The translations under genes were made by a program, and so were the position numbers. From Dehalococcoidales bacterium (GTDB taxonomy: Bacteria; Chloroflexota; Dehalococcoidia; Dehalococcoidales; RBG-16-60-22), in the NCBI GenBank assembly GCA_041652735.1, contig JBAZGT010000001.1, positions 77,197-141,196 of the forward strand: 64,000 nt of DNA, in the 5' to 3' direction. How positions within the stretch are numbered: the stretch's first letter is position 1; every line of letters begins with the position of its first letter. The notes under the pieces were generated by a model. It ran no database searches. It had not been told where the DNA came from and saw only the letters and a program-made list of their open reading frames with translations. Positions 45,096 to 64,000 of the stretch are shown piece by piece.

Positions 45096-46037
45096 TTACC
45101 CGTTTTTTAGTCGCTCTATCATTGCACGGGCGGCGCGGCGGGGAGTCGTTTTACCCTGTAAAATGGCTTCCACCAGCTTTTCCAGGGAGTCGCCGGTATC
45201 AAGGGACTGTATCATGTCTTTAAGCTGTCCCTTGATGGTCTCCAGCAGCTCCAGCTTCACCCTTTCCCGCCGGCGCTCCAGCAGTTCGCCGCTGTTTTGG
45301 AGGTAATCACGGTGTTTCATCAAGGCGGCGGACAGCTCTTTTATTCCTTTATCGTTAACCGCCTCGGTCAAGACCAGGGGTACCGGCCAACCGCTTTCAG
45401 GGCGGGGGCGCATCGCCAGCATCGCCTCCAAATCGGTCTTGAGTCGGTCGGCGCCTTCCTTATCGGCCTTGTTGACGGCGATAACGTCCGCCGACTCCAG
45501 GATGCCGGCTTTCATCGCCTGGATTTCATCACCGGCGCCGGGAGCGAGCACCAGCAGCGTGGTGTCCGCCGCTTTAACGATATCCAGCTCCACCTGCCCC
45601 GACCCCACCGTCTCCACCAGGATAACGTCCTTGCCCAAGGCGTCCATGACCCGCGCCGCGCCGATGGCCGCTTTAGCCAGCCCCCCCACCCAGCCCCGGG
45701 TGGCCAGGGAGCGGATGAACACGGCGGGGTCGGCGGCATGGCGCTGCATGCGTATGCGGTCCCCCAGCAAAGCCCCGCCGGTCAGGGCGGAGGTGGGGTC
45801 GATAGCGATGACGCCCACAGACATTTTTTTCCCGCGGAACGAGGCTATAAGGCAGTCCGTCAGCGTGCTCTTGCCCACGCCGGGCGCGCCGGTCACGCCT
45901 ATGATATAGGCCCGCCCCGTGTGAGGGTACAGGCTTTCCATCTCCGCGAAAGCGTCCGGGCTTTCATCCTCGATGAGGGTGATAAGGCGGGCGGCGGCGG
46001 GGACGTCACCTTTCAATACTTTAGCGGCGAGGCTCAT
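45096..46037 (-). CDS. meaB: MeaB/ArgK-type G-protein chaperone of B12 acyl-CoA mutases
   Basis: GVTGAPGVGKSTL P-loop; ETVGSGQ and NKADK motifs. Start set at the ATG at 46037; the track TTG start at 46091 lies in a CAAG heptad repeat. Confidence 0.85.
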   Translation of the reverse strand: MSLAAKVLKGDVPAAARLITLIEDESPDAFAEMESLYPHTGRAYIIGVTGAPGVGKSTLTDCLIASFRGKKMSVGVIAIDPTSALTGGALLGDRIRMQRHAADPAVFIRSLATRGWVGGLAKAAIGAARVMDALGKDVILVETVGSGQVELDIVKAADTTLLVLAPGAGDEIQAMKAGILESADVIAVNKADKEGADRLKTDLEAMLAMRPRPESGWPVPLVLTEAVNDKGIKELSAALMKHRDYLQNSGELLERRRERVKLELLETIKGQLKDMIQSLDTGDSLEKLVEAILQGKTTPRRAARAMIERLKNG

Positions 46038-46074
46038 GGTAAATAAGAGTATAGCAGGGAAAAGTGACAGGAAA

Positions 46075-46100
46075 CAAGATACAAGATACAAGGGACAAGG
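46075..46100. repeat. CAAGNNN heptad tract (4 periods)
   Basis: CAAG at 46075, 46082, 46089 and 46096. Confidence 0.7.
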
Positions 46101-50910: not shown

Positions 50911-51202
50911 TCGAACCATAGCGGGACAACTTCACCCTTCGACGAGCTCAGGGTGAGCGGATAATTGCGTTGTGATATGCGCCCCGCTCATGGTGAGCTT
51001 GCCTGCCCTTCATAGCTTCAGCGTAGTAGGGTCGAACCATAGCGGGACAACTTCACCCTTCGACGAGCTCAGGGTGAGCGGAGAATTGTGTTGTGATATG
51101 CGCCCCGCTCATGGTGAGCTTGCCTGCCCTTCATAGCTTCAGCGTAGTAGGGTCGAACCATAACGGGACAACTTCACCCTTCGACGAGCTCAGGGTGAGC
51201 GG
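50911..51202. repeat. 121-bp tandem repeat, 2.4 copies, built from two REP-type hairpins
   Basis: Units start at 50911, 51032 and 51153. Copies 1 and 2 differ at 2 positions. Each unit contains TTCACCCTTCGACGAGCTCAGGGTGAGCGG and CCGCTCATGGTGAGC...TCGAACCATAGCGG. Confidence 0.9.
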
Positions 51203-52141: not shown

Positions 52142-53950
52142 ATGGCTGGAGGATACATCGGCAAACTTTTGTTCGTGGACCTTACCACCGGGAATATTAA
52201 AGAAGAGACCCCGGCGGATGAGCTATACCGTGATTTCATCGGGGGGTACGGGGTGGGCGCCCGCATACTGTACAGTCGGCAAAAGGGCGGCGTCGACCCG
52301 CTGGGACCGGAGAACACGCTGGGCGTGATTACCGGCCCCCTGACCGGCTCCCCTGCCCCGATGGGCTGCCGCTACGCGGTGGTGGGCAAATCACCGCTGA
52401 CAGGAGGGTGGGGAGACGCCAACTGCGGCTCGGACTTCGGGCCGCACCTGAAATTCGCCGGGTATGACGGCGTTTTCTTTACCGGCATCGCGCCCAAGCC
52501 GGTGTATTTGTTTATCGATAACGGCCAGGCCTCGCTGCGGGACGCCGCCCACCTCTGGGGCAAGAGCACCTTCGAGACGGACGATATCCTCAAAGGGGAA
52601 ATCGGCAATGCGGCCAGAGTTATGTCAATCGGCCCGGCGGGGGAGAAGCTGTCCCTCATCGCGGGCATCATCACCAATAAGGGGTCGGCGGCGGGGCGTT
52701 CCGGGCTGGGGGCGGTGATGGGCTCCAAAAAGCTGAAAGCGATAGCGGTGGCCGGTACCGGAAAAGTGCCGCTGGCCGACCCGGCAGCCGTGGAAAAACT
52801 GAGGAAAGAATACCTGCCGGCTTTCCAGGGGCACGGCCTGCACATCAACGGCACGGTGGGCCATGCCGATAGCTCCGCGCACAGCGGGGACTCGCCGGTG
52901 AAAAACTGGGGCGGGGTGGGAGTCGTCGATATGCCGGACGTGTCCGGCCTGCATATAAACGTTTTTAACGCCAACCTGACCAGCCGGGGCGGCTGCTGGC
53001 ATTGCCCGGTGGCCTGTCACGGCCGACTCAACCAGGGGCCAGGCGAATATAAGTATCCCGCCGGCACCAAGCGGCCGGAGTACGAGACCGCCGCCGCCTT
53101 CGGGGCGATGTGCCTGAACACGGACGCCGAGGCCATCACCATGGCCAACCACATCTGCAACTATTACGGCGTGGACACCATTTCCACGGGCACGACGATA
53201 GCGTTCGCGATGGAGTGCTACGAACACGGTATTATCACGAAAAAAGACACGGACGGCATCGAGCTAAAGTGGGGCGACCACCGCGCCATGATTGCCATGA
53301 CCGAGAAGCTGGCCAGGCGCGAAGGCTTCGGCGATGTGCTGGCGGACGGCGTGAAAAAAGCGGCGGAGAGAATCGGCAAGGGCGCGGCGGACTTTGCCGT
53401 ACACATCGGCGGGCAGGAGCTGGGGCTGCACGACCCCAAGTTTGATTTTCCCGCCTTTGCCGGCACGCCAACCTCGGCCAAATACGCCGTGGACGCCGCC
53501 CCCGGCCGCCATACCGGCGGCTTCGGGCCGACGCACTATTCCTGGCTGGTGATAAACGCCGCCGGCTTGTGCCTGCACATCAACACGGTAGTGAACGGCG
53601 CCAAGTTCGCCACCGATTTCCTGGCCGCCGTGACCGGCTGGGACAGGCCGCTGGAGGAGATTTTAAGATGCGGGGCGCGCATCGGCGCGATGCGGCATGT
53701 CTTTACCCTGCGGGAGGGGGACAACCCGCTGCTGCGTAAAGTCCATGGCCGCATCACCGGCCGCCCGCCGCAAAAGGAAGGACCGCTGGCCGGCGTTACC
53801 ACCGACCACGAGGCGCAGGTTTACTGGAACCTGGGCGCGCTGGACTGGGACAGGGTGACGGCCAAACCCAGCCAACAGAAGCTGCTGGAGCTGGGACTGG
53901 ATGACGTGGCGGCGGAACTCTGGCCGCCCAAACAGAAACCGGGGCGTTAG
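52142..53950 (+). CDS. Aldehyde:ferredoxin oxidoreductase family enzyme, paralog 2
   Basis: 602 aa; MAGGYIGKLLFVDLTTGNIKEE...FIGGYGVGARILY. Confidence 0.88.
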   Translation: MAGGYIGKLLFVDLTTGNIKEETPADELYRDFIGGYGVGARILYSRQKGGVDPLGPENTLGVITGPLTGSPAPMGCRYAVVGKSPLTGGWGDANCGSDFGPHLKFAGYDGVFFTGIAPKPVYLFIDNGQASLRDAAHLWGKSTFETDDILKGEIGNAARVMSIGPAGEKLSLIAGIITNKGSAAGRSGLGAVMGSKKLKAIAVAGTGKVPLADPAAVEKLRKEYLPAFQGHGLHINGTVGHADSSAHSGDSPVKNWGGVGVVDMPDVSGLHINVFNANLTSRGGCWHCPVACHGRLNQGPGEYKYPAGTKRPEYETAAAFGAMCLNTDAEAITMANHICNYYGVDTISTGTTIAFAMECYEHGIITKKDTDGIELKWGDHRAMIAMTEKLARREGFGDVLADGVKKAAERIGKGAADFAVHIGGQELGLHDPKFDFPAFAGTPTSAKYAVDAAPGRHTGGFGPTHYSWLVINAAGLCLHINTVVNGAKFATDFLAAVTGWDRPLEEILRCGARIGAMRHVFTLREGDNPLLRKVHGRITGRPPQKEGPLAGVTTDHEAQVYWNLGALDWDRVTAKPSQQKLLELGLDDVAAELWPPKQKPGR

Positions 53951-53990: not shown

Positions 53991-54494
53991 TTATAGTTTC
54001 TCCAGGATATCCGTCATCCTGATGCACAGGGTCTCCGTCAGCCCCACCAGCGTTTTCTGCTGGGGCGCGGAGAGGCAGTCCATCACCTGCCTGGCCCGGG
54101 CATCGCCTTTGTTCTGGTTGTTCTTCACGTACGCCAGGCCGGCGGCGGTGACGCAGATATGGGTTACGCGGCGGTCTTTGCTGGAAAAGTCCCGGACGAT
54201 AAAACCTTCTTTTTCCAGGTTGTCCACAATCTTGGTCACGCTGTGCTTGGAGCGGAACATCATTTCCGCCAGGTGGGTGGGGGTGGAAGAACCGCCGGTG
54301 CAGACGAGGTGGTACATCGCCATACCGTGCAGGGGGCTGATATCGTCCTTTTTCATGGTGATTTCACAGTACCGGCTGATAATATCGGAGAATTTCACGC
54401 ACAGCCAGAAGTTGACCTCCCGGACCTGGGCGGCAACTTCTTCGATTTCTGAGGAAACCGGATTGTTTACAGCTCTGTTTCTTTTCTTCGGCAT
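53991..54494 (-). CDS. MarR-family transcriptional regulator
   Basis: 167 aa; winged-helix block LAEMMFRSKHSVTKIVDNLEKEGFIVR...DRRV. Confidence 0.85.
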   Translation of the reverse strand: MPKKRNRAVNNPVSSEIEEVAAQVREVNFWLCVKFSDIISRYCEITMKKDDISPLHGMAMYHLVCTGGSSTPTHLAEMMFRSKHSVTKIVDNLEKEGFIVRDFSSKDRRVTHICVTAAGLAYVKNNQNKGDARARQVMDCLSAPQQKTLVGLTETLCIRMTDILEKL

Positions 54495-54679: not shown

Positions 54680-55111
54680 TCACTTTTTCAAACGCTTTTC
54701 AATAACGCCCAGCTGCCGGAAAAAGGTGAAAGTATCCGCCACGTCCCAGTGCTCGGCGATTTTACCGCCCCGCACGCGGAAGATATCCACCACATCATAG
54801 TCCAGCGGCGCGCCGTCCGGCTCCTTCTCCAGCCAGTCCCCGCCGGAATGCGTCCCGGTGGTGCGGCTGAAGGCCATCACGATATCGCCGTCCGCCGCCA
54901 TTTTCTGCAAAGTATACCTGAAGTCCGGCACCGCCCGGAAAATTACCTCAAAAAACTCGATAAAGCCGGCCTTGCCCTGCGGGCAGTCCTGGTTATGCTG
55001 AATATAGTCGTCCCGCATGTACTCGTCCAGCCGGGTAAGGTCGTGACGGATGAACACGTCATCATAGAACCGGGCGACCACTTTCTTGTTTTTACGGGTC
55101 TTGTCCGCCAT
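54680..55111 (-). CDS. SnoaL-like polyketide/ester cyclase family protein
   Basis: MADKTRKNKKVVARFYDDVFIRHDLTRLDEYMRDDYIQHN...GGKIAEHWDV. Start trimmed to the ATG at 55111 (GGAGG RBS). Confidence 0.75.
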   Translation of the reverse strand: MADKTRKNKKVVARFYDDVFIRHDLTRLDEYMRDDYIQHNQDCPQGKAGFIEFFEVIFRAVPDFRYTLQKMAADGDIVMAFSRTTGTHSGGDWLEKEPDGAPLDYDVVDIFRVRGGKIAEHWDVADTFTFFRQLGVIEKRLKK

Positions 55112-55131
55112 TACAGCCTCCGGTTTTTTAG

Positions 55132-55917
55132 CTAGGATACGGTGGTGCCGCCGTCGATGGCCAGGCACTGGCCGGTGATGAAAGAGGCGGCGTCCGAGCA
55201 AAACCAGACTACCGCTTCCGCCATGTCCTCCGGGTGGGCGACGCGGCGGAGGGGAATCATGTCCACCATATGTTTTTTCACCTCCGGCGTGGTGCCGGTG
55301 AGGTACTCGAAAAGCAGCGTGTTGTCCGTGGGGCCGGGCATGATGGTATTGACCCGCACGTTAAAAGCGGCGGCTTCCAGCGCGGCGTTCTTGGTCAGGC
55401 CGTTCAGCCCGGCCTTGCTGGCCATGTAAGCGCAGAAGCCCGGCACCGCGTTGAGCGCGCCGATAGACGAAGTGTTGACGATGACGCCGTATTTCTGTTT
55501 GAACATCTGCCTCATCTCATATTTCAGGCAGAGAAAGACGCCCTTAAGGTTGATATCCAGGGTGCGGTCCCAGATTTCCTCCGGGCAGTCCACGATGTTC
55601 ACCACCGGCACGCGCTTGCCGTCCGGCCCGATGCCGGCGTTATTGAAAGCGAAGTCCAGCCGACCGTAAAGGCTGACGGCCTTGTCCACCATGGCCTCCA
55701 CCTGGGCGGCATTGGAGACATCGCATTTCACGAAAGACGCCTCGCCGCCGGCATCCTTAATCAGCTTTACCGTTGCTTCCGCGCCCTTGATATTGGCGTC
55801 CGTCACCACGATAACTTTAGCCCCCTCCCGCGCGAAAATCTGCGCCCCCACCCGGCCGATGCCGGAAGCCGCGCCGGTAACCAGGGCTACCTTGCCGTCA
55901 AACTGTTTCTTCACCAA
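55132..55917 (-). CDS. Short-chain dehydrogenase/reductase
   Basis: VALVTGAASGIGR, NNAG and YMASK motifs. Confidence 0.9.
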   Translation of the reverse strand: MVKKQFDGKVALVTGAASGIGRVGAQIFAREGAKVIVVTDANIKGAEATVKLIKDAGGEASFVKCDVSNAAQVEAMVDKAVSLYGRLDFAFNNAGIGPDGKRVPVVNIVDCPEEIWDRTLDINLKGVFLCLKYEMRQMFKQKYGVIVNTSSIGALNAVPGFCAYMASKAGLNGLTKNAALEAAAFNVRVNTIMPGPTDNTLLFEYLTGTTPEVKKHMVDMIPLRRVAHPEDMAEAVVWFCSDAASFITGQCLAIDGGTTVS

Positions 55918-56098: not shown

Positions 56099-56905
56099 GT
56101 GTTACTGGAAAACAGGGTAGCCATTGTGACCGGGGGGACCAAGGGGATGGGCAAAGCGATAGCGCTCAAGTTTGCCGGGGAGGGGTGCGACGTGGTGGTG
56201 ACCAGCCGCCACCTGGCGGAGGCTCAGCAAACGGCTAAAGAAATAGAGGCGCTGGGGCGGCGGGCCCTGGGGCTGCAGGCGGATATCTCCAAAAGCGCGG
56301 AAGTGGATGACATGGTGGCGCAGACCATCAGGAAATTCCAGAAAATAGATATCCTGGTGAACAACGCGGGGGGGATAGACGTAAAGGGCGGGGACACCAC
56401 GGACGCCACCGAGGCGGACTGGGACCATGTCCTGGACGTTAACCTCAAGGGGACTTTCCTGTGCTGCATGGCAGTTATTCCTTACATGAAAAAGCAGCAG
56501 TACGGCAAGATTATCAACCTTTCCTCCATGGGGGCGGTGCATCCGGCGGTATCCGTGCTGCACTACCACGCGGCCAAGGCCGGGGTGCTGGGGCTGACTA
56601 TCAATCTGGCTTTCGAGCTGGCGCCGCAAAACATCTACTGCAACGCCATCGTGCCGGGGCCCGTCGAGACGCCGTTCTGGGACTCCCTGCAAGAGCCGGG
56701 ACCGGCCAGGGACGCGTTTTTCGCGGCCTTGTGCAAGAAAGAGGTACCGCTGGGGCGGATGGGCAAACCGGAGGATATAGCCGGGCCGGCCCTGTTCCTG
56801 GCGTCCGGCCTGTCCGACTACGTTACCGGGCAGATTATCTACGCAGCCGGCGGCCAGCCCCTGAACTCGCACGCGGCCACTTTCCTTTCCACGCCGCAGT
56901 CGTGA
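56099..56905 (+). CDS. Short-chain dehydrogenase/reductase
   Basis: GTG start after AAGGAGG; VAIVTGGTKGMGKAI, NNAG and YHAAK motifs. Confidence 0.9.
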   Translation: MLLENRVAIVTGGTKGMGKAIALKFAGEGCDVVVTSRHLAEAQQTAKEIEALGRRALGLQADISKSAEVDDMVAQTIRKFQKIDILVNNAGGIDVKGGDTTDATEADWDHVLDVNLKGTFLCCMAVIPYMKKQQYGKIINLSSMGAVHPAVSVLHYHAAKAGVLGLTINLAFELAPQNIYCNAIVPGPVETPFWDSLQEPGPARDAFFAALCKKEVPLGRMGKPEDIAGPALFLASGLSDYVTGQIIYAAGGQPLNSHAATFLSTPQS

Positions 56906-56937: not shown

Positions 56938-58398
56938 ATGAAAAAGGCAAGAGTCGTTAACCAGCGTATCGACGACGAAATATTAATGAAAAAACGCCGG
57001 GAGGAGCTGGACAGGTGGCCCACCGGCCGGGAAGTGGACTTCGAGGAGGCAGTGGCTTTCCAGAAAAGCCTGCCGGACAGCAAGGTCTGGTGGAAAGTGA
57101 TGGTGAAGCTGCGCGAGGAAGGCCGCATGAGCGTTTTCCCCCGCGCCGGCACCCCTATACTGGAAAAAATGATCGAGCTCTGCCAGGGACTGCGGGACTC
57201 CGGCGTGGTGCTTATCCCGGTGACCACGGACAGCTATACCCGCCACGGGCAGTATGAAAAAGTCCAGGGCATTTTGGACGAGTGCAACCGCACCGGCCAG
57301 GCGCTCCTGAACGGCTACCCCATCATCAACCAGGGGGTGAAAAACACCCGCAAGCTGGTGGAAAGCGTGGACGCGGCTTTCAGTCCGCGGGGCGCGGGCG
57401 GGGAAATCGCCATCGCTTCCGGGCTGACCACCCTGGAGGGGGGGCTGGAGTTCATCACCTGGGCCAGCTACTCCAAGAAAATGACCATCCGGGAGCTGGT
57501 GGAGAAATGGCAGAACAGCACCCGGCTGGCCGGCTGGTACGCGGACCGGGGGGTGATACTCTGCACGGACCTGCACGGCTGGCTGCCCGGCGCGCCCGTC
57601 CCGCTGAGCGTGAACATCGTGTGCCTGATTATCCAGGCGCTGACGGCGGCGGAGCAGGGGCAGAAAGCGGTCTACCCGCTGGTGCACTGCATGGGCAACA
57701 TGGCGCAGGACATGGCCTGGATAAAGCTGGCCCCGCGGCTGATAAGGGAATACCTGGACAAATTCGGCTACAAAGACTGCATGATAACCGGCTGCTGCCC
57801 CGCCCAGACGCCCCTTTTCCCGGTCGCTCAGGACATGGGAGGGGCGTTCGCTTACCTTAACTACATCGCCATGGTGGGGGCGCTTTCCAAGAGCAACGCC
57901 ACCGATTTGAGAAGCATCGACGAGGGGGCGGGGGTGCCGACCAAAGATACCAACGCCGTGAGCTACCGCTCCGCCAGGTGGATTTTCGACGTCATCCGCG
58001 AGCAAAAAATCGATATCAATATCAAGGACGTGGAAACCGAGATGAGGCTGACCGAGATGGAGGTCAAGGCGATATTCTACAAAATCCTGGACCTCGGCGA
58101 CGGCGACGTGGTGGACGGCACCATCAAAGCGGTGGAGGCCGGCGTGCTGGACTCGCCGTGGTGCCCCAATATCACCGTCAAGGACAAGGTGCTGGGCGTG
58201 AGGGACGCGCACGGCGCCTGCCGCTACCTGGAGTTCGGCAACCTGCCCATACCCAAACCCGCCCGGGATTTCCACCGCCAGAAAATAGCGGAACGGGAGA
58301 AAATAGAAGGGAAAAAGGCGGACTACCATACCGCGGTACGTGACCTGTGGAGCATGAGCAAGGGGAAAATAGTGGGGCTGCCGCCGTATGACAAGTAA
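56938..58398 (+). CDS. glmE: Glutamate mutase epsilon (E) subunit homolog (methylaspartate mutase large subunit family)
   Basis: 486 aa; collinear by eye with clostridial GlmE/MutE as I recall it (REELDRWPTGREVDFEEAV, FPRAGTP, TTDSYTRHGQY, LLNGYPIIN, CRYLEFGNLP). Confidence 0.8.
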   Translation: MKKARVVNQRIDDEILMKKRREELDRWPTGREVDFEEAVAFQKSLPDSKVWWKVMVKLREEGRMSVFPRAGTPILEKMIELCQGLRDSGVVLIPVTTDSYTRHGQYEKVQGILDECNRTGQALLNGYPIINQGVKNTRKLVESVDAAFSPRGAGGEIAIASGLTTLEGGLEFITWASYSKKMTIRELVEKWQNSTRLAGWYADRGVILCTDLHGWLPGAPVPLSVNIVCLIIQALTAAEQGQKAVYPLVHCMGNMAQDMAWIKLAPRLIREYLDKFGYKDCMITGCCPAQTPLFPVAQDMGGAFAYLNYIAMVGALSKSNATDLRSIDEGAGVPTKDTNAVSYRSARWIFDVIREQKIDINIKDVETEMRLTEMEVKAIFYKILDLGDGDVVDGTIKAVEAGVLDSPWCPNITVKDKVLGVRDAHGACRYLEFGNLPIPKPARDFHRQKIAEREKIEGKKADYHTAVRDLWSMSKGKIVGLPPYDK

Positions 58399-58408
58399 TA
58401 TACGCTTA

Positions 58409-58501
58409 TGTCATCCTGAGCAGAGCGAAGGATCCGGCGGCGGCGGGGCTATAGCCGCCCCACCCCGGGATTCTTCGGTCGTAAACTCCCTCAGCATGAC
58501 A
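58409..58501. repeat. MITE-like palindromic element, copy 2
   Basis: TGTCATCCTGAG...CTCAGCATGACA, 93 bp, between the glmE-like and glmS-like genes. Confidence 0.8.
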
Positions 58502-58527
58502 GCTGGAGAATACTTTAAAGGAGAGCC

Positions 58528-58953
58528 ATGGAAAGAGTACCGACAGTCATCACCGGCACGGTGGGGATGGACGCGCACGTCATCGGCACCAAGGTATTGT
58601 CCCGCGCGCTGAAAGACGCCGGCTTCAAGGTAGTGGAGCTGGGCATGCAGGTATCCCCGGAGGAGTTTATCAGCGTGGCGCAGGAGACCAGGGCGGACGC
58701 CATCCTGATGACCTCCCTCTACGGCATGGCGGAGCTGGACCTGAAAGACTTTAATGAAAAACGTATGGAGGCGGGGCTGGGGGACGTTCTCCTCTACATC
58801 GGCGGGAACCTGGTCATAGGCCGGTACGACCCCAAGGAGGTGGAGCCGCGGTTCAAGAAGCTGGGGTTCGACCGGGTGTACCCGCCGGAGACGGACACGG
58901 AAAAGGGCATCGAGGACTTGAAAAACGACCTCAAGGCGAAGGGAAAGATGTAA
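58528..58953 (+). CDS. glmS: B12-binding small (sigma) subunit of glutamate mutase family
   Basis: 141 aa; DxHxxG cobalamin motif in GMDAHVIG; GAGAG-type RBS upstream. Confidence 0.8.
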   Translation: MERVPTVITGTVGMDAHVIGTKVLSRALKDAGFKVVELGMQVSPEEFISVAQETRADAILMTSLYGMAELDLKDFNEKRMEAGLGDVLLYIGGNLVIGRYDPKEVEPRFKKLGFDRVYPPETDTEKGIEDLKNDLKAKGKM

Positions 58954-58970
58954 GGATAATAACCAAACGC

Positions 58971-59051
58971 CAAGATACCAAGACCAAGCCCCACCCCTTT
59001 TCCCCCCTTTTTTATTTGAGTTTTTCTTTGGTGTCTGTATCTTGTATCTTG
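58971..59051. repeat. Inverted CAAG / CTTG tract pair around a pyrimidine-rich loop
   Basis: CCAAGATACCAAGACCAAG ... CTTTGGTGTCTGTATCTTGTATCTTGG, in the glmS-glmL spacer. Confidence 0.6.
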
Positions 59052-59067
59052 GTTTTTACCGGGTGCC

Positions 59068-60438
59068 ATGGATAACATTAAGCTGTTAATCGACTTCGGC
59101 AGCACCTACACCAAGGTGGCGGCCATAGACCTGGACAAAGTGGCGATAGCGGCCACCGCCCGGGTGCCCTCCACCGTGGACACGGACATCACCCTGGGGC
59201 TGGAAAAAGCCCTGGAGGAAATCAGCGCCCAAACCGGCATCGGCGGTCCGGAGAAAAAGAACTCGCTGGCCTGCTCCAGCGCGGCGGGGGGCCTGCGCAT
59301 GGTCTGCACCGGCTTCGTGCCGGAGCTTACCAGCAAGGCGGCCAGTCACGCGGCCCTGGGGGCGGGGGCTAAAGTCATCGGTTGCTACTCCTACAAGCTG
59401 ACCAGCCGGGAAATCAGTGAAATTGAAAATACAGCGCCGGACATCCTGCTGCTTTGCGGCGGCACGGACGGCGGCGATGACGCGGTCATCATCCATAACG
59501 CCAAAATGCTGGCGCGGACGGGTGAGAAAATCGGTAATATCATCGTGGCGGGGAATAAATCCGCCTACGATGAAATCGATGCCGCTTTCAAAAACAGCCA
59601 AAAGCGCGTTATCTATACCAAAAACGTCATGCCGGAAATAGGCGTGCTGGACACCGCGCCGTGCAATAAAGAGATACGGGACATTTTCATCAACAACATC
59701 ATCCGGGCCAAAGGCATTTCCCGGGCGCGGGACATCGTGGGGGAGGTAATCATGCCCACGCCTTCGGCGGTGCTGGAAGCCGCCAAACTTTTAGCCGAAG
59801 GATGCGAAGGCGAGCCCGGCTTCGGCGAGCTGATGGTCGTCGACCCCGGCGGCGCCACCACCGACGTCCACTCCATCGCCGGGGGCAACCCGTCCTCCGG
59901 CAGCGTGGCCATGGTCAATACCCTGCCCGAGCCCTACGTGAAACGCACGGTGGAGGGCAACCTCGGGCTGAAGCATAATATCGATAGCTTGAGTGAATTT
60001 ACCCGCGGCAAAAAGCTGCCGCCGGACTTTACCGCCGCCTGCCGCTCCTTTCATGAAGGCCGGCTGCCGCGTACTCCCGCGGAAATAGCCTGCCATGAGC
60101 TTTTGTCCCGGGTGGCGGTGGAGGTAGCGGTAAACCAGCACGCGGGGCGCATCGAGAAAATATACGGGCCAACCGGCGAGATGCTGCTCCAGCACGGCAA
60201 AGACCTGACCGGCATCAAGACGGTCATCGGCACCGGGGGGCCGGTTATCTTCGCCGCCGACCCCCGCCGGATTCTGGAAGGCGTTTTGTTCCAGCCGGAA
60301 AACCCGCTAATCCTTAAGCCCAAAAACCCGCGCCTTTTACTCGATGCGCAATACATCCTTTACGCGGTGGGGCTTTTGAGCCAGGCGGAGCCGAAAAAGG
60401 CGCTGCAACTTGCCAAGAAGTACCTCGAGCAAATATAG
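59068..60438 (+). CDS. glmL: MutL/GlmL-type glutamate mutase accessory (reactivase-like, ASKHA fold) protein
   Basis: 456 aa; LIDFGSTYTKVAAIDL and VVDPGGATTDVHS ATPase phosphate motifs. Confidence 0.75.
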   Translation: MDNIKLLIDFGSTYTKVAAIDLDKVAIAATARVPSTVDTDITLGLEKALEEISAQTGIGGPEKKNSLACSSAAGGLRMVCTGFVPELTSKAASHAALGAGAKVIGCYSYKLTSREISEIENTAPDILLLCGGTDGGDDAVIIHNAKMLARTGEKIGNIIVAGNKSAYDEIDAAFKNSQKRVIYTKNVMPEIGVLDTAPCNKEIRDIFINNIIRAKGISRARDIVGEVIMPTPSAVLEAAKLLAEGCEGEPGFGELMVVDPGGATTDVHSIAGGNPSSGSVAMVNTLPEPYVKRTVEGNLGLKHNIDSLSEFTRGKKLPPDFTAACRSFHEGRLPRTPAEIACHELLSRVAVEVAVNQHAGRIEKIYGPTGEMLLQHGKDLTGIKTVIGTGGPVIFAADPRRILEGVLFQPENPLILKPKNPRLLLDAQYILYAVGLLSQAEPKKALQLAKKYLEQI

Positions 60439-60446
60439 TATTGGTG

Positions 60447-60540
60447 TGTCATCCTGATCGCAGCGAAGGATACCGGGGCGGACGTACTTACCCCACCCCT
60501 CCCCGAGATTCCTCAGTCGCTTCGCTCCTTCAGAATGACA
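60447..60540. repeat. MITE-like palindromic element, copy 3
   Basis: TGTCATCCTGATCGCAGCGAAGGATACCGGGGCGG...TCGCTTCGCTCCTTCAGAATGACA, 94 bp. It supplies the false ATG at 60535. Confidence 0.8.
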
Positions 60541-60552
60541 GGGTTGACTATT

Positions 60553-61794
60553 ATGGAAAAAATGCTGGGACACCTCCGCGCCCTGGACCTGACCGATGAC
60601 AAGGGATTTCTCTGCGGGAAAATCCTGGCCGACCTCGGCGTGAACGTGATCAAGGTGGAAAGACCGGGCGGCGACCCTTCCCGCAATATCGGGGGGTTCC
60701 GGGGCGGCGCGCCGGACCCGCAGCAAAGCCTGTACTGGTTCGCCTACAACTCCAATAAAAAAGGCGTCACGCTGGACATCGAAAAGTCGCGGGGACGCGA
60801 GATTTTTAAAAAGCTGGCCGCCGCCGCCGACTTCATCATAGAGTCGTTCCCGCCGGGCTATCTGGACGGGCTGGGCATCGGCTATGACGCCATCAGCCAA
60901 ATTTACCCTAAAGTCATCTGGGCGTCCATCACGCCCTTCGGGACGGAAGCGCCCTACCGCGACTTCAAGGGGCCGGACATCGTGGTCATGGGCATGAGCG
61001 GCACGCTCTACCAGACCGGCGAAAGCGACGGCCCCCCCGTCCATATCAGCCTGTCCCAGGCCTGTCTCCACGCCGGGGCGGACGCCGCCGCGGGCTGCAT
61101 GGTGGCTTACCACCACCGGGAAAAGACGGGCGAGGGGCAGCGGGTGGACGTGTCCATGCAGCAGAGCGCCGCCTGGTTCCAGGCCAACGCCATCCCCTCC
61201 TACGAGCTTAACGGGACTATTTTAAAGCGCGCCGGGGCTTTCCGGGCGGGGACGAGCAGCCAGGTGGGGCAGCGGCAGGTCTGGCGCTGTAAAGACGGCT
61301 ACCTGTTTTTCAACGTTATAGGGGGGAGGACGGGGGCCAAGACCTTAAGCGCCCTGGCGGCCTGGATGGACGAGGAAAAGATGGCGACCGATTTCCTGCT
61401 GCGCCTGGACTGGGACAGCTTCGACATGTTCACGGTAACGCAGGAAACAATGGACAAGATTGCCAACCCCATCAGCGCTTTCTTTTTAAAGCACACGCGG
61501 CAGGAGCTTTTAAAGGGGGCGGTGCCGCGGGGCGTTTCCCTGGGGCCTTTATCCAGCATGCAGGACCTGCTGGAAGACCCCTGCCTTAAAGAGCGCGGCT
61601 ACTGGACGCAGATAGAGCACCCGGAGCTGGGCGCCAGCCTCACCTACCCCAAAGAGTTCGTGAGGGCGTCAGAGACGGACTGCGCCACGCATTGCCGCGC
61701 CCCCCTCACCGGGGAGCATAACGGAGAGGTGTATAAAGAAATAGGGCTTTCCGAAAAAGAACTGGATGAGCTGAAAATTGCTCGGGTTATTTAG
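60553..61794 (+). CDS. Family III (CaiB/BaiF) CoA-transferase
   Basis: MEKMLGHLRALDLTDDKGFLCGKILADLGVNVIKVERPGGDP; start trimmed out of the repeat element. Confidence 0.88.
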   Translation: MEKMLGHLRALDLTDDKGFLCGKILADLGVNVIKVERPGGDPSRNIGGFRGGAPDPQQSLYWFAYNSNKKGVTLDIEKSRGREIFKKLAAAADFIIESFPPGYLDGLGIGYDAISQIYPKVIWASITPFGTEAPYRDFKGPDIVVMGMSGTLYQTGESDGPPVHISLSQACLHAGADAAAGCMVAYHHREKTGEGQRVDVSMQQSAAWFQANAIPSYELNGTILKRAGAFRAGTSSQVGQRQVWRCKDGYLFFNVIGGRTGAKTLSALAAWMDEEKMATDFLLRLDWDSFDMFTVTQETMDKIANPISAFFLKHTRQELLKGAVPRGVSLGPLSSMQDLLEDPCLKERGYWTQIEHPELGASLTYPKEFVRASETDCATHCRAPLTGEHNGEVYKEIGLSEKELDELKIARVI

Positions 61795-61829: not shown

Positions 61830-61904
61830 CCGCTCACCCTGAGCCTGTCGAAGGGTGAGAAAATAAGCGCCAACCTCATGGTTCGACAAGCTCACCATGA
61901 GCGG
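61830..61904. repeat. Pair of REP-type hairpins (CCGCTCACCCTGAGC..GTCGAAGGGTGAG and CTCATGGTTCGACAAGCTCACCATGAGCGG)
   Basis: Same family as the 50911-51202 array, in opposite orientation. It translates to the artefactual MPLTLSLSKGE...VRQAHHER N-terminus of ORF 61827. Confidence 0.8.
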
Positions 61905-61934
61905 GTAATAAAAACGGGAACGGAAAGATTAAAC

Positions 61935-63158
61935 ATGGAAAAAAGAGCGGGCGTTTTCAGCGGACTGAAAATACTGTCCTACTCCTGGGCGGTGGTAGGC
62001 CCGCTGACGATGAAGTTTTTCGCCGACCACGGCGCAACGGTGATACGCATCGAAACCAGCCTGCGCCCCTGCACCATGCGCTCGTCCGCGCCCTATAAAG
62101 ACAACCGGCCGGGGCTGAACCGGGGCGGCTATTTTACCTATTTCAACGGCAATATTTTGAGTTTTACCCTTAACATGAACCACCCCAAAGCGGCGGAAAT
62201 CTCCAAAAAGCTGGTGGGGTGGTGCGATGTCTTCATGGAAAACTACACCCCCGGCGTCATCGAAAAATGGGGGCTGGACTACGAAAACCTGAAAAAGATA
62301 AAACCGGACGTCATCATGCTGCGGCAGAGCGGCTACGGCTCCACGGGGCTTTATAAAAACCTGCCGGCCTTCGGGATGGTGCTGGTGCCCATCGCCGGGC
62401 TGCCCAACTTTATCGGCTGGCCGGGCAAAGAGCCGCTGCCGGTGGGCGTAAGCGCCTACACGGACTGCATCAGCCCCCGCTATGCCGCCGCCGCCCTGAT
62501 TGCCGCCCTGGACTACCGAAAAAGGACGGGCAAAGGGCAGCTCCTGGACATATCACAATTCGAGTCGGCCATATCCTTCATCCTGCCCGGCGTGCTGGAA
62601 TACAGCGCCAACGGCCGGGAGCCGGAAAGAATCGGCAACGCTTCCCCCTGTGCCGCCCCCCACGGGGTCTATCCCTGTAAAGGCAGCGACCGCTGGTGTA
62701 CCATCGCCGTGACTACCGACGAGGAATGGGCGAATTTCTGTAGTGAAATCGGGCAGCCCGGACTGGTGAGCGACCCCTGGTTCGATACCCTGGAAAACAG
62801 GAAGGAGAACGAGGACGCGCTTAATAAAATAGTCGGCGACTGGACGGTTAATCTTACCCCGGAAGAGGTCATGTCCCGGCTGCAGTCGGCGGGGGTGGCG
62901 GCGGGGGTGGTGGCAAACGCCGCCGATGTTTACCGCGACCCCCAGCTGCGGCAGCGCAATATCTACTGGCCGATGCAGCACGCCGAGATGGGGGAGTTCA
63001 CCCACCTGGGGCAGAGCTTCCAGCTTTCCAAGACGCCGGCCAAAGCGTACTCGCCGGCGCCCTTACTGGGCGAGCACACGGAGCAAATCTGCACGGAGAT
63101 GCTGGGCATGACGGACGAAGAGTTCGTCGGCCTGATGCAGGAGGGTTTATTTGAATAG
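61935..63158 (+). CDS. Family III (CaiB/BaiF) CoA-transferase, paralog 2
   Basis: MEKRAGVFSGLKILSYSWAVVGPLTMKFFADHGATVIRIE; start moved to the ATG at 61935, downstream of the REP pair. Confidence 0.88.
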   Translation: MEKRAGVFSGLKILSYSWAVVGPLTMKFFADHGATVIRIETSLRPCTMRSSAPYKDNRPGLNRGGYFTYFNGNILSFTLNMNHPKAAEISKKLVGWCDVFMENYTPGVIEKWGLDYENLKKIKPDVIMLRQSGYGSTGLYKNLPAFGMVLVPIAGLPNFIGWPGKEPLPVGVSAYTDCISPRYAAAALIAALDYRKRTGKGQLLDISQFESAISFILPGVLEYSANGREPERIGNASPCAAPHGVYPCKGSDRWCTIAVTTDEEWANFCSEIGQPGLVSDPWFDTLENRKENEDALNKIVGDWTVNLTPEEVMSRLQSAGVAAGVVANAADVYRDPQLRQRNIYWPMQHAEMGEFTHLGQSFQLSKTPAKAYSPAPLLGEHTEQICTEMLGMTDEEFVGLMQEGLFE

Positions 63159-63171
63159 AGGATATGGCATC

Positions 63172-63205
63172 CCCGCTCATCCAGAGCTTGTCGAAGGAGA
63201 GCGGG
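63172..63205. repeat. REP-type hairpin variant CCCGCTCATCCAGAGCTTGTCGAAGGAGAGCGGG
   Basis: 7-bp terminal stem CCCGCTC / GAGCGGG; same GAGCTTGTCGAA core as the other REP copies. Confidence 0.65.
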
Positions 63206-63226
63206 AATCCCGCGGGGGTGGGGGGG

Positions 63227-63251
63227 CTTGCTGCTTGACACTTGATACTTA
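63227..63251. repeat. CTTGNNN heptad tract (4 periods)
   Basis: CTTG at 63227, 63234 and 63241, and CTTA at 63248. Confidence 0.65.
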
Positions 63252-63256
63252 AATAA

Positions 63257-63349
63257 TGTCATCCTGAGCGTAGCGAAGGATACCGGGGCGGGGAGGTTTT
63301 CCCCCACCCCACCGAGATTCTTCAGTCGCTTCGCTCCTTCAGAATGACA
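63257..63349. repeat. MITE-like palindromic element, copy 4
   Basis: TGTCATCCTGAGCGTAGCGAAGGATACCGGGGCGG...TCGCTTCGCTCCTTCAGAATGACA, 93 bp; very similar to copy 3. Confidence 0.8.
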
Positions 63350-63368
63350 AATATATTGGAGGCGCAAA

Positions 63369-64000
63369 ATGCTTAAGTTTGAAAAGGCCGGGGAATTTAA
63401 GGACGTTATTTACGAGCGCAGCGGCTACGTGGCGCGCATTACCCTGAACGACCCCGATACCATGAACACCGGCGTCAAGGACTTCTGGAAGGCGCTGGAC
63501 GTGGTGGAGGAGGCAGACGACATCAAGGTGCTGGTTATCAAGGGGGCGGGAAGGGCTTTAGCCGCCGGCGCCCCCCTGCACGAGGTGGGGTTCGTTTACG
63601 GGTGGAAAAACCCCAAGCCCGGCGAGAAAGCGCCCAAGACCCCCATCCGCCACCGCATCAAGTTCGACAGGAAGCTCTTTTACGAATGCGCCCAGAAGCT
63701 GCTCAATTTCCCCAAGATAACGGTGGTGCAGGCCCACGGCTTCCTGCTGGGCGCGTCCATGGACATGTACATGCTCTGCGACTTCATCGTGGGGGCGGAG
63801 GACTGCAAGTTCGGCGAGATAGAAGTGCGGCTGGGCATTCCCCAGATGACCATTACCCCCATGATGATACTGCGCGTCGGCCTGACCAACGCCCTGGATA
63901 TGTGCCTGACCGGGCGCATGATGGACGGCAAGGAAGCCGCCCGCATCGGGCTCATCAACCGGGCGGTGCCGCCGGACAAGCTGGAGGAAGAGGTCAACCG
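63369..64000 (+). CDS. Enoyl-CoA hydratase/isomerase family protein; gene runs off the right edge
   Basis: Absent from the ORF track because it is open-ended. GGAGG RBS, then the ATG at 63369. Translation MLKFEKAGEFKDVIYERSGYVARITLNDPDTMN...VIKGAGRALAAGAPL...GFLLGASMDMYMLCDFIV. Confidence 0.75.
   Translation, partial: MLKFEKAGEFKDVIYERSGYVARITLNDPDTMNTGVKDFWKALDVVEEADDIKVLVIKGAGRALAAGAPLHEVGFVYGWKNPKPGEKAPKTPIRHRIKFDRKLFYECAQKLLNFPKITVVQAHGFLLGASMDMYMLCDFIVGAEDCKFGEIEVRLGIPQMTITPMMILRVGLTNALDMCLTGRMMDGKEAARIGLINRAVPPDKLEEEVN

Follow-up and report, generated by a model that had tools for sequence, protein, structure and literature searches.

In Dehalococcoidales, a predicted carbon-skeleton mutase related to glutamate mutase occurs in tight, conserved linkage with a set of enzymes predicted to act on CoA thioesters. 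The locus lies in a window of 64 kb (the whole stretch of DNA that was analysed) from a Dehalococcoidales metagenome-assembled genome (MAG). Judged by its sequence, the catalytic subunit is a non-canonical member of the GlmE family, and its clade appears specific to this order. Because the pocket is altered and a CoA set stands in place of methylaspartase (MAL), the cluster probably defines an undescribed dicarboxylic-acid pathway; no description of the system was found in the literature. On balance, we lean towards a reading in which the substrate of the AdoCbl mutase is a free C5 dicarboxylate substituted at position 2 and its product a 3-methyl C4 dicarboxylate, which later steps process as a CoA thioester.

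Gene content of the cluster

The genes and intergenic repeats are as follows.

52142-53950, plus strand: tungsten-type aldehyde:ferredoxin oxidoreductase (AFOR; PF02730 and PF01314), conserved neighbour of the cluster
53991-54494, minus strand: MarR-family regulator (PF01047/PF12802), upstream, kept in relatives
54680-55201, minus strand: SnoaL-like (NTF2-fold) protein (PF07366, E = 1.7e-31)
55132-55917, minus strand: second SDR, divergently transcribed (PF13561/PF00106)
56099-56905, plus strand: BbsD-like SDR, probable 3-hydroxyacyl-CoA dehydrogenase, opening the co-directional block (best PDB match 7PCS_B)
56938-58398, plus strand: GlmE-like catalytic (E) subunit of a putative AdoCbl carbon-skeleton mutase, non-canonical Dehalococcoidales clade (486 aa; PF06368)
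58409-58502, no strand: palindromic repeat, family 1, between E and S (hairpin -49.9 kcal/mol, z = -3.6)
58528-58953, plus strand: GlmS-type cobalamin-binding (S) subunit (141 aa; PF02310; DAHVIG)
59068-60438, plus strand: GlmL/MutL accessory protein (L), reactivase/chaperone-type (456 aa; PF13941)
60447-60530, no strand: repeat, family 1, between GlmL and CoAT1 (fold -28.3 kcal/mol, z -0.90)
60535-61794, plus strand: class III CoA-transferase subunit 1 (CoAT1), Asp-bearing and catalytic, BbsEF chain-A type (PF02515; 9FN0_A)
61830-61906, no strand: palindromic repeat, family 2, between CoAT1 and CoAT2
61935-63158, plus strand: class III CoA-transferase subunit 2 (CoAT2), Asp-less, BbsEF chain-B type (9FN0_B)
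63173-63350, no strand: family-2 partial copy and family-1 repeat, between CoAT2 and crotonase (63173-63197 and 63257-63350)
63369-64000, plus strand: crotonase-family enzyme (ECHc), truncated by the window end (PF00378; ECH_1)

The preliminary description had named homologues of GlmE, of a GlmS with the DxHxxG motif and of MutL/GlmL, and the ORF positions together with the Pfam and NCBIfam matches bear this out. The Pfam family Met_asp_mut_E matches the E subunit with E = 2.4e-118. The S subunit, whose translation shows DxHxxG as DAHVIG, scores 185 bits against NF002612 (B12-binding / methylaspartate mutase S; cutoff 110) and 157.5 against TIGR01501 (cutoff 135.8), and the L protein matches PF13941 with E = 1.5e-153 and NF040745 (accessory_GlmL) with 539.9 bits (cutoff 475). 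None of the three genes is disrupted, and each is matched over its full length. As had also been stated, their order is E-S-L, whereas in a canonical control locus the genes follow the clostridial order S-L-E, with MAL directly adjoining. The Pfam annotation agrees with the context given earlier as well: two SDRs upstream, two CoA_transf_3 genes (family III) and a crotonase downstream, and no methylaspartase. The set is best explained as encoding a functional AdoCbl-dependent carbon-skeleton mutase, with a predicted TIM-barrel E, base-off/His-on S and GlmL chaperone. Its make-up of E, DxHxxG-bearing S and L is shared with GlmES/MutES plus GlmL of Clostridium cochlearium and C. tetanomorphum (EC 5.4.99.1; PDB 1CB7, 1CCW, 1I9C, 6H9E), and the radical mechanism is presumably common to both. 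Wood-Ljungdahl genes are present in the same 64-kb window.

Two palindromic repeat families occupy four spacers of the cluster, and three copies of family 1 were found against none expected; the repeat at 60447-60530 has a predicted fold no better than that of shuffled sequences. Of the MITE and heptad repeats once claimed between the three intact genes, the palindromic elements are real and the genes are indeed intact, but the heptad is only TGTATCT x2.3 at 59036-59051, a trivial repeat. No plus-strand terminator-like sites were found in the cluster spacers.

The catalytic subunit and its clade

The E subunit matches PDB 1CB7_B and 6H9E_B over its full length at 34-35% identity, and its AF2 model (pLDDT 83.7) aligns with 6H9E_B, and likewise with 1CB7, at a TM of 0.92, which indicates the glutamate-mutase fold. 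Its TIGR01503 score is 350.6, under the cutoff of 390.1 and less than half of the 772.9 reached by canonical GlmE.

The roles of Arg66, Arg100, Arg149, His150, Glu171, Tyr177 and Tyr181 in C. cochlearium GlmE are taken here from the structural literature, not from coordinates. By alignment, the blocks FPRAG, DSYTRHGQY, SPRG and LEGG, previously picked out by eye as retained, do fall on Arg66, Arg100, Arg149 and Glu171. A suspected change of the substrate-contacting tyrosines holds for one of them: GGLEFITWASY aligns to GGGISYNVPY with Tyr177 replaced by Thr, but Tyr181 is retained. His150 has become Gly, adjoining a 6-residue deletion after Arg149; the substrate loop is longer by one residue, and the Lys326/Glu330 positions are conservatively kept as Arg/Glu. 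With its arginine claw, Glu171 and Tyr181, the window E subunit could still accept glutamate or 2-hydroxyglutarate.

Not every glutamate-binding residue is conserved, as is also evident from the clade. Across its 119 members, the equivalents of Arg66, Arg100, Arg149 and Tyr181 are invariant, while the His150 position is Gly or Ala and the Tyr177 position Gly, Thr, Asn or His. No residue is fixed at the Glu171 position (Glu 78, Gly 20, Asn 10, Thr 5, other 6). In canonical-signature sequences, by contrast, R-R-RH-E-Y-Y is kept in 27 of 27, despite more than 50% divergence among them. Among 9-residue stretches, the substrate loop ranks second in variability (pN/pS 0.54 vs 0.17 elsewhere), and GlmE identity between species is 73-88%. 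Phylogeny with neighbourhood mapping, which had been proposed as a check, places the clade within a non-canonical radiation, far off the canonical clade (NJ tree), and, among the loci inspected, finds MAL near the canonical control only.

The CoA module and its conservation

For CoAT1, the best PDB match is 9FN0_A (205 bits; next 143 bits), and for CoAT2 it is 9FN0_B (240 bits; next 165 bits). The catalytic Asp of CoAT1 aligns with that of 9FN0_A and is kept in 21/21 sequences (the window copy and 20 orthologues); CoAT2 carries Gly in its place, as 9FN0_B does, in 19/19 (the window copy and 18 orthologues). The CoAT2 ORF was called mechanically from 61827, its first 36 codons traversing the repeat at 61830-61906, and the true start is probably 61935; relatives are 407-415 aa long. 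The SDR upstream of GlmE matches BbsD (7PCS_B) with 202 bits, the runner-up in the PDB being a (3R)-hydroxyacyl-CoA dehydrogenase at 173 bits. Going by these matches, the transferase pair is a BbsEF-type heteromer and the SDR is BbsD-like, both of which the preliminary description had overlooked; together, they suggest that the CoA-activated intermediates are 2-substituted succinates. The crotonase is 89-96% identical in most relatives (lowest 78%), where it has 291-295 aa, and carries an insertion of ~20 residues relative to two ordinary ECH genes upstream. Its catalytic acids are presumably Asp at the first position and Glu at the second, as mapped on rat enoyl-CoA hydratase.

The block SDR-E-S-L-CoAT1-CoAT2-ECH-(PrpD)-CoAT3 recurs in ~30 species-level Dehalococcoidales MAGs, and E-S-L is linked to CoAT1/CoAT2 in all of the ~25 loci that extend that far. 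CoAT3, a third class-III transferase, stands just past the window-equivalent region in relatives. Most related loci have the BbsD-like SDR directly upstream of GlmE, and most keep the divergent second SDR, whose best PDB matches are generic SDRs; the SnoaL-like gene occurs in about half of the loci extending that far. AFOR is 75-79% identical in most relatives, either upstream or downstream of the cluster. Gene content is not uniform: about half of the loci carry PrpD, and a few have FAD enoate-reductase-like or HpaI-like genes. In a sister clade, 48% identical, the flanks comprise a CoAT2-like transferase, PrpD and another CoA-transferase-type gene. Most clade members share these neighbours, although a third have no Glu at the 171 position.

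Across 580 kb (the 64-kb window and 44 related or comparison loci), MAL turned up in the canonical S-L-E-MAL control alone, and no methylaspartase lies within 10 kb of the cluster in ~30 species. Neither a lyase nor a thiolase belongs to the conserved cluster, which leaves the pathway without a defined end. Operon adjacency by itself is no proof of a shared pathway. The CoA genes might be unrelated neighbours of a divergent glutamate mutase, with methylaspartase, mesaconase and citramalate lyase encoded elsewhere; the full-length homology and the identical fold would suit such an ordinary, scattered methylaspartate pathway, and the inspection took in 64 kb here and, in the relatives, +/-10 kb. 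This is, however, distinctly unlikely given the CoAT1/CoAT2 association in all ~25 loci that extend that far and its echo in the sister clade, the adjoining MAL of the canonical control, the loss of His150 and Tyr177, the lack of constraint at Glu171, and the phylogenetic distance from the canonical clade.

Proposed pathway, substrate and direction

That the mutase belongs to a single pathway with the CoA module is inferred, as are the order of the steps and the substrate. As in glutamate mutase, a 5'-deoxyadenosyl radical would take hydrogen from a free dicarboxylic acid gripped by the retained three-arginine claw, and a carboxyl-bearing C2 fragment would migrate, interconverting a 2-substituted glutarate and a 2-substituted 3-methylsuccinate. 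In place of a deamination by methylaspartase, the adjoining BbsEF-type heteromer (Asp subunit and Gly partner) would activate the branched C4 dicarboxylate from succinyl-CoA. The crotonase would hydrate or dehydrate the resulting thioester, the BbsD-like dehydrogenase would then carry out the oxidation, and CoAT3 of the relatives may recycle CoA.

The benzylsuccinate beta-oxidation of anaerobic toluene degraders (BbsEF, BbsH, BbsCD; PDB 9FN0, 7PCS) likewise has two adjoining paralogous class-III subunits that differ in the same way, Asp against Gly, at the catalytic position, and a crotonase and a BbsD-like SDR share one operon here too. The sequence similarity is, however, only about 30-40%; the conserved cluster lacks a BbsG-type acyl-CoA dehydrogenase, BbsC, the BbsAB thiolase and benzylsuccinate synthase, and here a B12 mutase sits between the dehydrogenase and transferase genes.

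As to the substrate, a non-amino analogue such as 2-hydroxyglutarate (giving 3-methylmalate), or another 2-substituted glutarate, is tentatively put first. Glutamate itself, with ammonia removed at the CoA level, is less probable, and something else slightly less so again. Against the favoured reading, GlmS and GlmL both exceed NCBIfam equivalog cutoffs for 'methylaspartate mutase'. A mesaconate/methylsuccinate-type branch may be one of several options. The 2-methyleneglutarate mutase of Eubacterium barkeri (EC 5.4.99.4), which forms 3-methylitaconate, a 2-substituted 3-methylsuccinate, needs no amino-binding glutamate and is, to our knowledge, the only other AdoCbl mutase that rearranges a free C5 dicarboxylate. 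No named match to it was found among E-S fusion relatives, NCBIfam having no model for that enzyme, and nicotinate-pathway genes are absent here. The earlier suggestion of a non-ordinary mutase feeding a CoA-dependent route is partly upheld by the non-canonical E subunit, the absence of MAL from the regions inspected and the CoA linkage.

A genuine glutamate mutase could also serve a methylaspartase-independent route, in which the BbsEF-type transferase activates 3-methylaspartate and the crotonase eliminates ammonia to give mesaconyl-CoA for hydration and oxidation. This is rather unlikely: one-third of the clade lacks Glu at 171 and all of it lacks His150 and Tyr177, mostly with the same neighbours; the E subunit falls under the TIGR01503 cutoff; and no crotonase-type enzyme is known to us to release ammonia from an aminoacyl-CoA. 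The claw, Glu171 and Tyr181 of the window protein nevertheless speak for it, as do the equivalog scores of GlmS and GlmL, the lack of MAL in all neighbourhoods inspected, and 3-methylaspartate being a 2,3-disubstituted succinate, the BbsEF-type substrate class. A precedent is the haloarchaeal methylaspartate cycle (glutamate mutase, Mal, succinyl-CoA:mesaconate CoA-transferase Mct, mesaconyl-CoA hydratase Mch, Mcl; PMC5592240), in which a glutamate-mutase-type enzyme is likewise coupled to a class-III CoA-transferase that depends on succinyl-CoA and to an enoyl-CoA hydratase, around a methyl-branched C5 dicarboxylate. Here, however, Mal is missing, the conserved cluster has no Mcl-type lyase, and the hydratase is crotonase-type instead of MaoC-type. 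Identity of the transferases with Mct was rejected (NF041294, 158-189 bits vs a cutoff of 700) in favour of the BbsEF-type heteromer.

The favoured conversion of a C5 into a branched C4 dicarboxylate might also run in reverse, the CoA-thioester module building a 3-methyl C4 dicarboxylate (e.g. from citramalyl-, mesaconyl- or beta-methylmalyl-CoA) and the mutase linearising it to 2-hydroxyglutarate or glutamate. Chloroflexota use mesaconyl-, beta-methylmalyl- and citramalyl-CoA chemistry in the 3-hydroxypropionate bi-cycle, which counts for this direction. The unusually high conservation of GlmE, as expected of central metabolism, and the Wood-Ljungdahl genes of the window also fit, and a Bbs-type module is in principle reversible (PMC10818641). 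Yet neither a lyase nor a condensing enzyme is part of the conserved cluster, the MarR and AFOR neighbours look catabolic, and the idea is pure inference, which makes it decidedly improbable. If true, it would let a Wood-Ljungdahl organism reach 2-oxoglutarate/glutamate without citrate synthase.

Mutase genes and the substrate pocket

Between 56938 and 60438 of the window, three intact and co-directional ORFs encode proteins of 486, 141 and 456 amino acids. These genes and their neighbours are listed below.

Genes of the mutase cluster (window positions)
55132..55917 (-), divergent SDR
56099..56905 (+), BbsD-like SDR
56938..58398 (+), E, GlmE-like protein
58528..58953 (+), S, GlmS
59068..60438 (+), L, GlmL
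60535..61794 (+), CoAT1, class III CoA-transferase
61935..63158 (+), CoAT2, class III CoA-transferase (probable start)
63369..64000 (+), ECHc, crotonase

The E protein belongs to the Pfam family PF06368 (Met_asp_mut_E, E = 2.4e-118), and the S and L ORFs carry B12-binding and MutL domains, respectively. Over residues 7-482, E aligns at 35% identity with C. cochlearium GlmE (chains 1CB7_B and 6H9E_B; E = 8e-88 to ~1e-87). The AlphaFold2 model of E (pLDDT 83.7, pTM 0.88) matches 6H9E_B/1CB7_B with a TM score of 0.92 and an rmsd of 2.4 Å; the runner-up folds, those of lysine and ornithine aminomutases and of methylmalonyl-CoA mutase, reach only ~0.4-0.5. In NCBIfam, the S protein lies above the equivalog cutoffs for methylaspartate mutase S (NF002612, 185 bits, cutoff 110; TIGR01501, 157.5 bits, cutoff 135.8), and its DAHVIG is the base-off/His-on motif DxHxxG. 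Similarly, L passes as the accessory protein GlmL (NF040745, 539.9 bits, cutoff 475). Since the ORF, domain, motif, alignment and fold results agree, the gene identities, the E-S-L order and the motifs given in the preliminary description are correct.

Glutamate mutase (EC 5.4.99.1) converts (S)-glutamate to (2S,3S)-3-methylaspartate. As in that enzyme, the E subunit combines GlmE homology with the same TIM-barrel fold, and it is accompanied by a DxHxxG S subunit and a GlmL accessory protein. On the subunit-E model TIGR01503, E stays below the equivalog cutoff (350.6 bits, cutoff 390.1); the canonical GlmE P0137, a homologue from the search, scores 772.9 bits.

The residues of the C. cochlearium enzyme which we take to matter here are the arginine claw of Arg66, Arg100 and Arg149, the two tyrosines Tyr177 and Tyr181, and Glu171, which sits at the amino group. 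The signature, read as R-R-RH-E-Y-Y, is complete in 27 of 27 canonical sequences, despite their mutual identity of less than 50%. At Arg66, Arg100, Arg149-His150, Glu171, Tyr177 and Tyr181 the window protein has R, R, R-G, E, T and Y; the full glutamate-binding signature is therefore absent. The glutamate of its LEGG motif, Glu167 of the window enzyme, is the kept Glu171 equivalent. The glycine at position 150 stands beside a 6-residue deletion, and the threonine at 177 lies in a loop that is one residue longer.

The same pattern runs through the Dehalococcoidales non-canonical GlmE-like proteins (hereafter, the clade). Across 119 full-length members, the three arginines and Tyr181 never change. 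Position 150 is occupied by Gly or Ala, never by His, and position 177 by Gly, Thr, Asn or His, never by Tyr. At the Glu171 position, 78 members have Glu, 20 have Gly, 10 Asn, five Thr and six another residue. The substrate loop, window residues 166-174, ranks second in variability among the 9-residue stretches of a protein that is otherwise very conserved, and it also overlaps the lowest-confidence segment of the AlphaFold2 model (residues 172-179). The pN/pS of the loop is 0.54 vs 0.17 elsewhere, about three times the background. Because the value does not reach 1 and the synonymous sites show saturation, positive selection is not claimed, and the loop would be under relaxed or diversifying constraint only. 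Taken together, these features show E, S and L to be, as far as sequence can predict it, an intact AdoCbl mutase with a dicarboxylate-binding claw.

The CoA module and the intergenic repeats

The two transferases that follow GlmL resemble benzylsuccinate CoA-transferase, BbsEF, and each is closest to a different chain of its structure, 9FN0. For CoAT1, the best PDB match is 9FN0_A (205 bits), with 143 bits for the next family and 108 for chain B of 9FN0; for CoAT2, it is 9FN0_B (240 bits, next 165). The catalytic aspartate of class III transferases is Asp169 in CaiB numbering (PMC5592240). It is kept in CoAT1 and 9FN0_A, and is replaced by glycine in CoAT2 and 9FN0_B; thus, as in BbsEF, the residue is confined to one subunit. 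With the window copy counted, aspartate is found in 21 of 21 CoAT1 and glycine in 19 of 19 CoAT2 sequences, and the genes lie side by side in every locus that extends to them. This asymmetry identifies CoAT1/CoAT2 as a predicted BbsEF-type heteromer with one catalytic subunit type. BbsEF itself acts on (R)-benzylsuccinate in the context of benzylsuccinate synthase; among the window genes, no glycyl-radical enzyme was detected.

The SDR whose gene immediately precedes GlmE is closest to BbsD (202 bits), with (3R)-hydroxyacyl-CoA dehydrogenase as its next match; the divergently transcribed SDR is of a generic kind. ECHc is truncated by the window end. In relatives it has 291-295 amino acids with an insertion of ~20 residues, and Asp/Glu occupy the two catalytic acid positions, on a mapping that we assume from rat enoyl-CoA hydratase. 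Two further likenesses to the Bbs pathway, 12-17 kb upstream, were considered and rejected, because the genes are generic and are not conserved beside the cluster in relatives: a thiolase/DUF35 pair as BbsAB (197 bits on the BbsB model, cutoff 750), and an acyl-CoA dehydrogenase as BbsG (Bcd/AcrC-like, with Etf nearby).

The spacers of the operon hold two families of palindromic repeats.

Palindromic repeats in the operon (window positions)
58409-58502, family-1 repeat, operon spacer
60447-60530, family-1 repeat, operon spacer
61830-61906, family-2 repeat, between the CoAT1 and CoAT2 genes
63257-63350, family-1 repeat, operon spacer

The family-1 repeat (TGTCATCCTGAGC..AGCGAAGGAT) is ~95 nt long with terminal inverted repeats. 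It has three copies in the 64 kb, against 0 expected, and all of them lie within the mutase operon spacers. Two of them fold into hairpins (-50 and -42 kcal/mol), and the copy at 60447 folds no better than shuffled sequence. The repeat recurs in eight loci of relatives (L001, L003, L008, L011, L012, L014, L025 and L030). Its presence there in both orientations, for the most part in the same spacers of the operon, suggests an intercistronic RNA structure or a mobile, REP/MITE-like element. No Rfam match was obtained for the repeat, and the Rfam scan of the operon gave a single chance-level match only. The terminator scan found no + strand terminator-like site in the operon spacers, which makes co-transcription plausible.

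Because the family-2 repeat lies between the transferase genes, an over-long CoAT2 ORF of 443 amino acids can be read from 61827, its first 36 codons (MPLTLSLSKGE...RQAHHER...) passing through the repeat. The actual start is probably the ATG at 61935, giving 407 amino acids as in relatives. The family-2 core CTCACCCTGAGCTCGTCGAAGG is also present as three tandem copies, 121 nt apart, at 50936-51199 (-), between PIG-L and enoyl-CoA hydratase genes.

Conservation of the cluster and its place in the GlmE family

A Dehalococcoidales MAG encodes a protein with 100% identity to the window E protein. Proteins that are 73-88% identical make up at least 120 clusters, and where their sources name an organism, it is always a MAG of Dehalococcoidales or Chloroflexi. 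When one genome per GTDB species was scanned, 34 loci emerged, 33 of them from Dehalococcoidales/Chloroflexota MAGs. The remaining one (L035:4-114) lies on a contig binned as Candidatus Bathyarchaeia, which opens with a 37-residue fragment 92% identical to the GlmE C-terminus and is probably a mis-binned Dehalococcoidales contig.

Neighbourhoods were read from gene calls and Pfam for two relatives, and from ORF/BLAST labelling of all loci. The conserved block runs SDR(-), SDR(+), GlmE, GlmS, GlmL, CoA_transf_3, CoA_transf_3, crotonase, in some cases MmgE/PrpD, and then a third CoA_transf_3. This third transferase is nearest to succinate-glutarate and formyl-CoA transferase models, far under their cutoffs. 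SnoaL, MarR, AFOR (aldehyde:ferredoxin oxidoreductase) and two ordinary enoyl-CoA hydratases are the usual upstream genes. The first CoA-transferase follows GlmL in every locus extending far enough (~25). The mutase is obligately linked to the BbsEF-type transferase, the crotonase and the BbsD-like dehydrogenase.

Around this core the content varies. About half of the clusters contain PrpD-family genes. In a few, the crotonase is replaced or joined by a fumarate-reductase/vinylphenol-reductase-like flavoprotein, by NuoF/GltD-like electron-input proteins, or by a second AFOR together with an HpaI-type aldolase. Loop type and content vary together: '..GLE|FITW', the window type, never occurs with PrpD, and '..G|FL.F' types occur with it. 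This may simply be subclade structure.

The first ~34 kb of the window bear on the host. A Wood-Ljungdahl block at 1180-34736 encodes formate-THF ligase, FolD, MTHFR and CODH/ACS, the last with corrinoid Fe-S protein subunits. Alongside are genes for EtfAB, a NiFe hydrogenase, an Hdr-like protein and another AFOR (19499-21409). With this set, the source organism looks like an acetogen-type Dehalococcoidales. A MeaB-type G-protein chaperone is encoded at 45096-46091 (-), 11 kb upstream of the cluster, and flanks the mutase cluster in one relative too. MeaB is normally a partner of methylmalonyl-CoA-mutase-family enzymes, and no MCM-type mutase gene was found in the window.

When 1.84 billion cluster representatives were searched exhaustively with HMMER, 152 proteins were found at E < 1e-30. 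The canonical signature is present in 26 of the 111 full-length proteins among the best 150 matches, and at least 85 of these 111 clusters (50% identity) are without it; as the matches are ranked by similarity to the window query, these counts describe its surroundings and not the canonical share of the whole family. In a crude NJ tree, the 26 canonical sequences and C. cochlearium GlmE form one almost exclusive clade. The Dehalococcoidales clade joins two 48-49% identical relatives inside a non-canonical radiation, in which positions 66, 149, 171, 177 and 181 are very diverse. Non-canonical representatives score 366-483 bits on TIGR01503. Some thus exceed the cutoff of 390.1 and would receive the name methylaspartate mutase.

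The homologue P0122 (48% identity) has a CoAT2-like gene and PrpD on one side, and acetyl-CoA-hydrolase/transferase and GlmL on the other. GlmE-GlmS fusion proteins of Clostridia (Oscillospiraceae, Family XIII, Sporobacter), with 47-49% identity, form the nearest outgroup of the clade. Such fusions are widespread in Oscillospiraceae and Family XIII, and methylaspartate mutase is their only annotation. In the Clostridia genome OW818648.1 (L045:3734-13604), the neighbours are a glycyl-radical enzyme, its activase, two Fe-alcohol dehydrogenases and GlmL. A literature search found no characterisation of this pairing of an E-S fusion B12 mutase with a glycyl-radical enzyme. As for 2-methyleneglutarate mutase as the identity of the outgroup, NCBIfam holds no model for it, and the name is absent among 120 relatives. 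Further non-canonical GlmE-like/GlmS pairs (L041:208-8172, L040:2016-6591) lie beside a glycyl-radical enzyme and a TctC tricarboxylate-binding protein, or beside citryl-CoA synthetase/lyase-like genes. Several GlmE-like proteins of these types exceed the TIGR01503 cutoff and would be mis-named.

Known glutamate pathways and a candidate route

The classical pathway proceeds through the mutase, methylaspartase (MAL), mesaconase and citramalate lyase (PMC8473912). As a positive control, canonical P0137 sits in an S-L-E-MAL operon. When the MAL of that control locus (L043) was used in tblastn against the window and 44 loci (580 kb), it matched itself alone, the next match having E = 0.5, and the Pfam tables of two relatives contain no MAAL domain. 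The association with MAL that marks EC 5.4.99.1 is thus missing for this mutase within the window and the loci surveyed. Among nearly all selected window ORFs of at least 90 amino acids, Pfam and NCBIfam detected no MAL, class-I fumarase/mesaconase, citramalate lyase, MaoC hydratase or HpcH/CitE lyase.

The haloarchaeal methylaspartate cycle also joins a glutamate mutase to CoA chemistry, and it differs from the window cluster at each step compared. Its transferase is Mct, whereas the cluster transferases reach only 158-189 bits on NF041294 (cutoff 700). Its hydratase is a MaoC-type Mch, whereas that of the cluster is ECH_1. It further employs Mal and Mcl, of which Mal is absent from the window and the loci, and an HpcH/CitE lyase is absent from the window. 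The full set of the cycle does not stand beside this mutase.

A different route can be proposed. The mutase would act on a free acid, since both carboxylate-binding arginine sets are kept, and would convert a 2-substituted glutarate to a 2-substituted 3-methylsuccinate. The latter would be of the compound class that BbsEF-type enzymes activate with succinyl-CoA. The thioester may then be hydrated or dehydrated, and oxidised. One candidate pair is 2-hydroxyglutarate/3-methylmalate; L-2-hydroxyglutarate is turned over slowly by clostridial glutamate mutase, and the beta-methylmalyl- and mesaconyl-CoA chemistry that would lie downstream is known in Chloroflexota. Such chemistry also operates in the haloarchaeal cycle (PMC5592240). 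The substrate could also be glutamate itself, deaminated at the CoA level, or a 2-methyleneglutarate-type acid, and the sequence data are consistent with all three candidates.

It is a distinct possibility, falling just short of probable, that E-S-L represents a new GlmE-family AdoCbl activity on a non-amino C5 dicarboxylate such as 2-hydroxyglutarate/3-methylmalate. With the BbsEF-type transferase, the crotonase and the BbsD-like dehydrogenase, it would make up a so far undescribed pathway for dicarboxylates, one that depends on CoA and that an uncultured lineage has conserved. A full-text literature search returned no account of the cluster or of any non-glutamate GlmE homologue. To our knowledge, no GlmE-family reaction other than that of glutamate mutase has been characterised since coenzyme B12 was discovered. 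The reading can be tested, as the genes for the mutase are intact, small and expressible.

If it is true, the clade would be the visible tip of a large hidden radiation in which some members lie beside glycyl-radical enzymes or citryl-CoA-lyase-like genes, all annotated as methylaspartate mutase. Public pipelines give this name to the clade and to many non-canonical relatives, and any metabolic model that relies on it to predict a methylaspartate cycle or glutamate fermentation would then be wrong. A second substrate class would widen the B12 carbon-skeleton mutase chemistry on free acids. It would also provide a function for a cluster conserved in uncultured, non-dehalogenating Dehalococcoidales of peat, aquifers and sediments, and would explain one corrinoid demand of these organisms.
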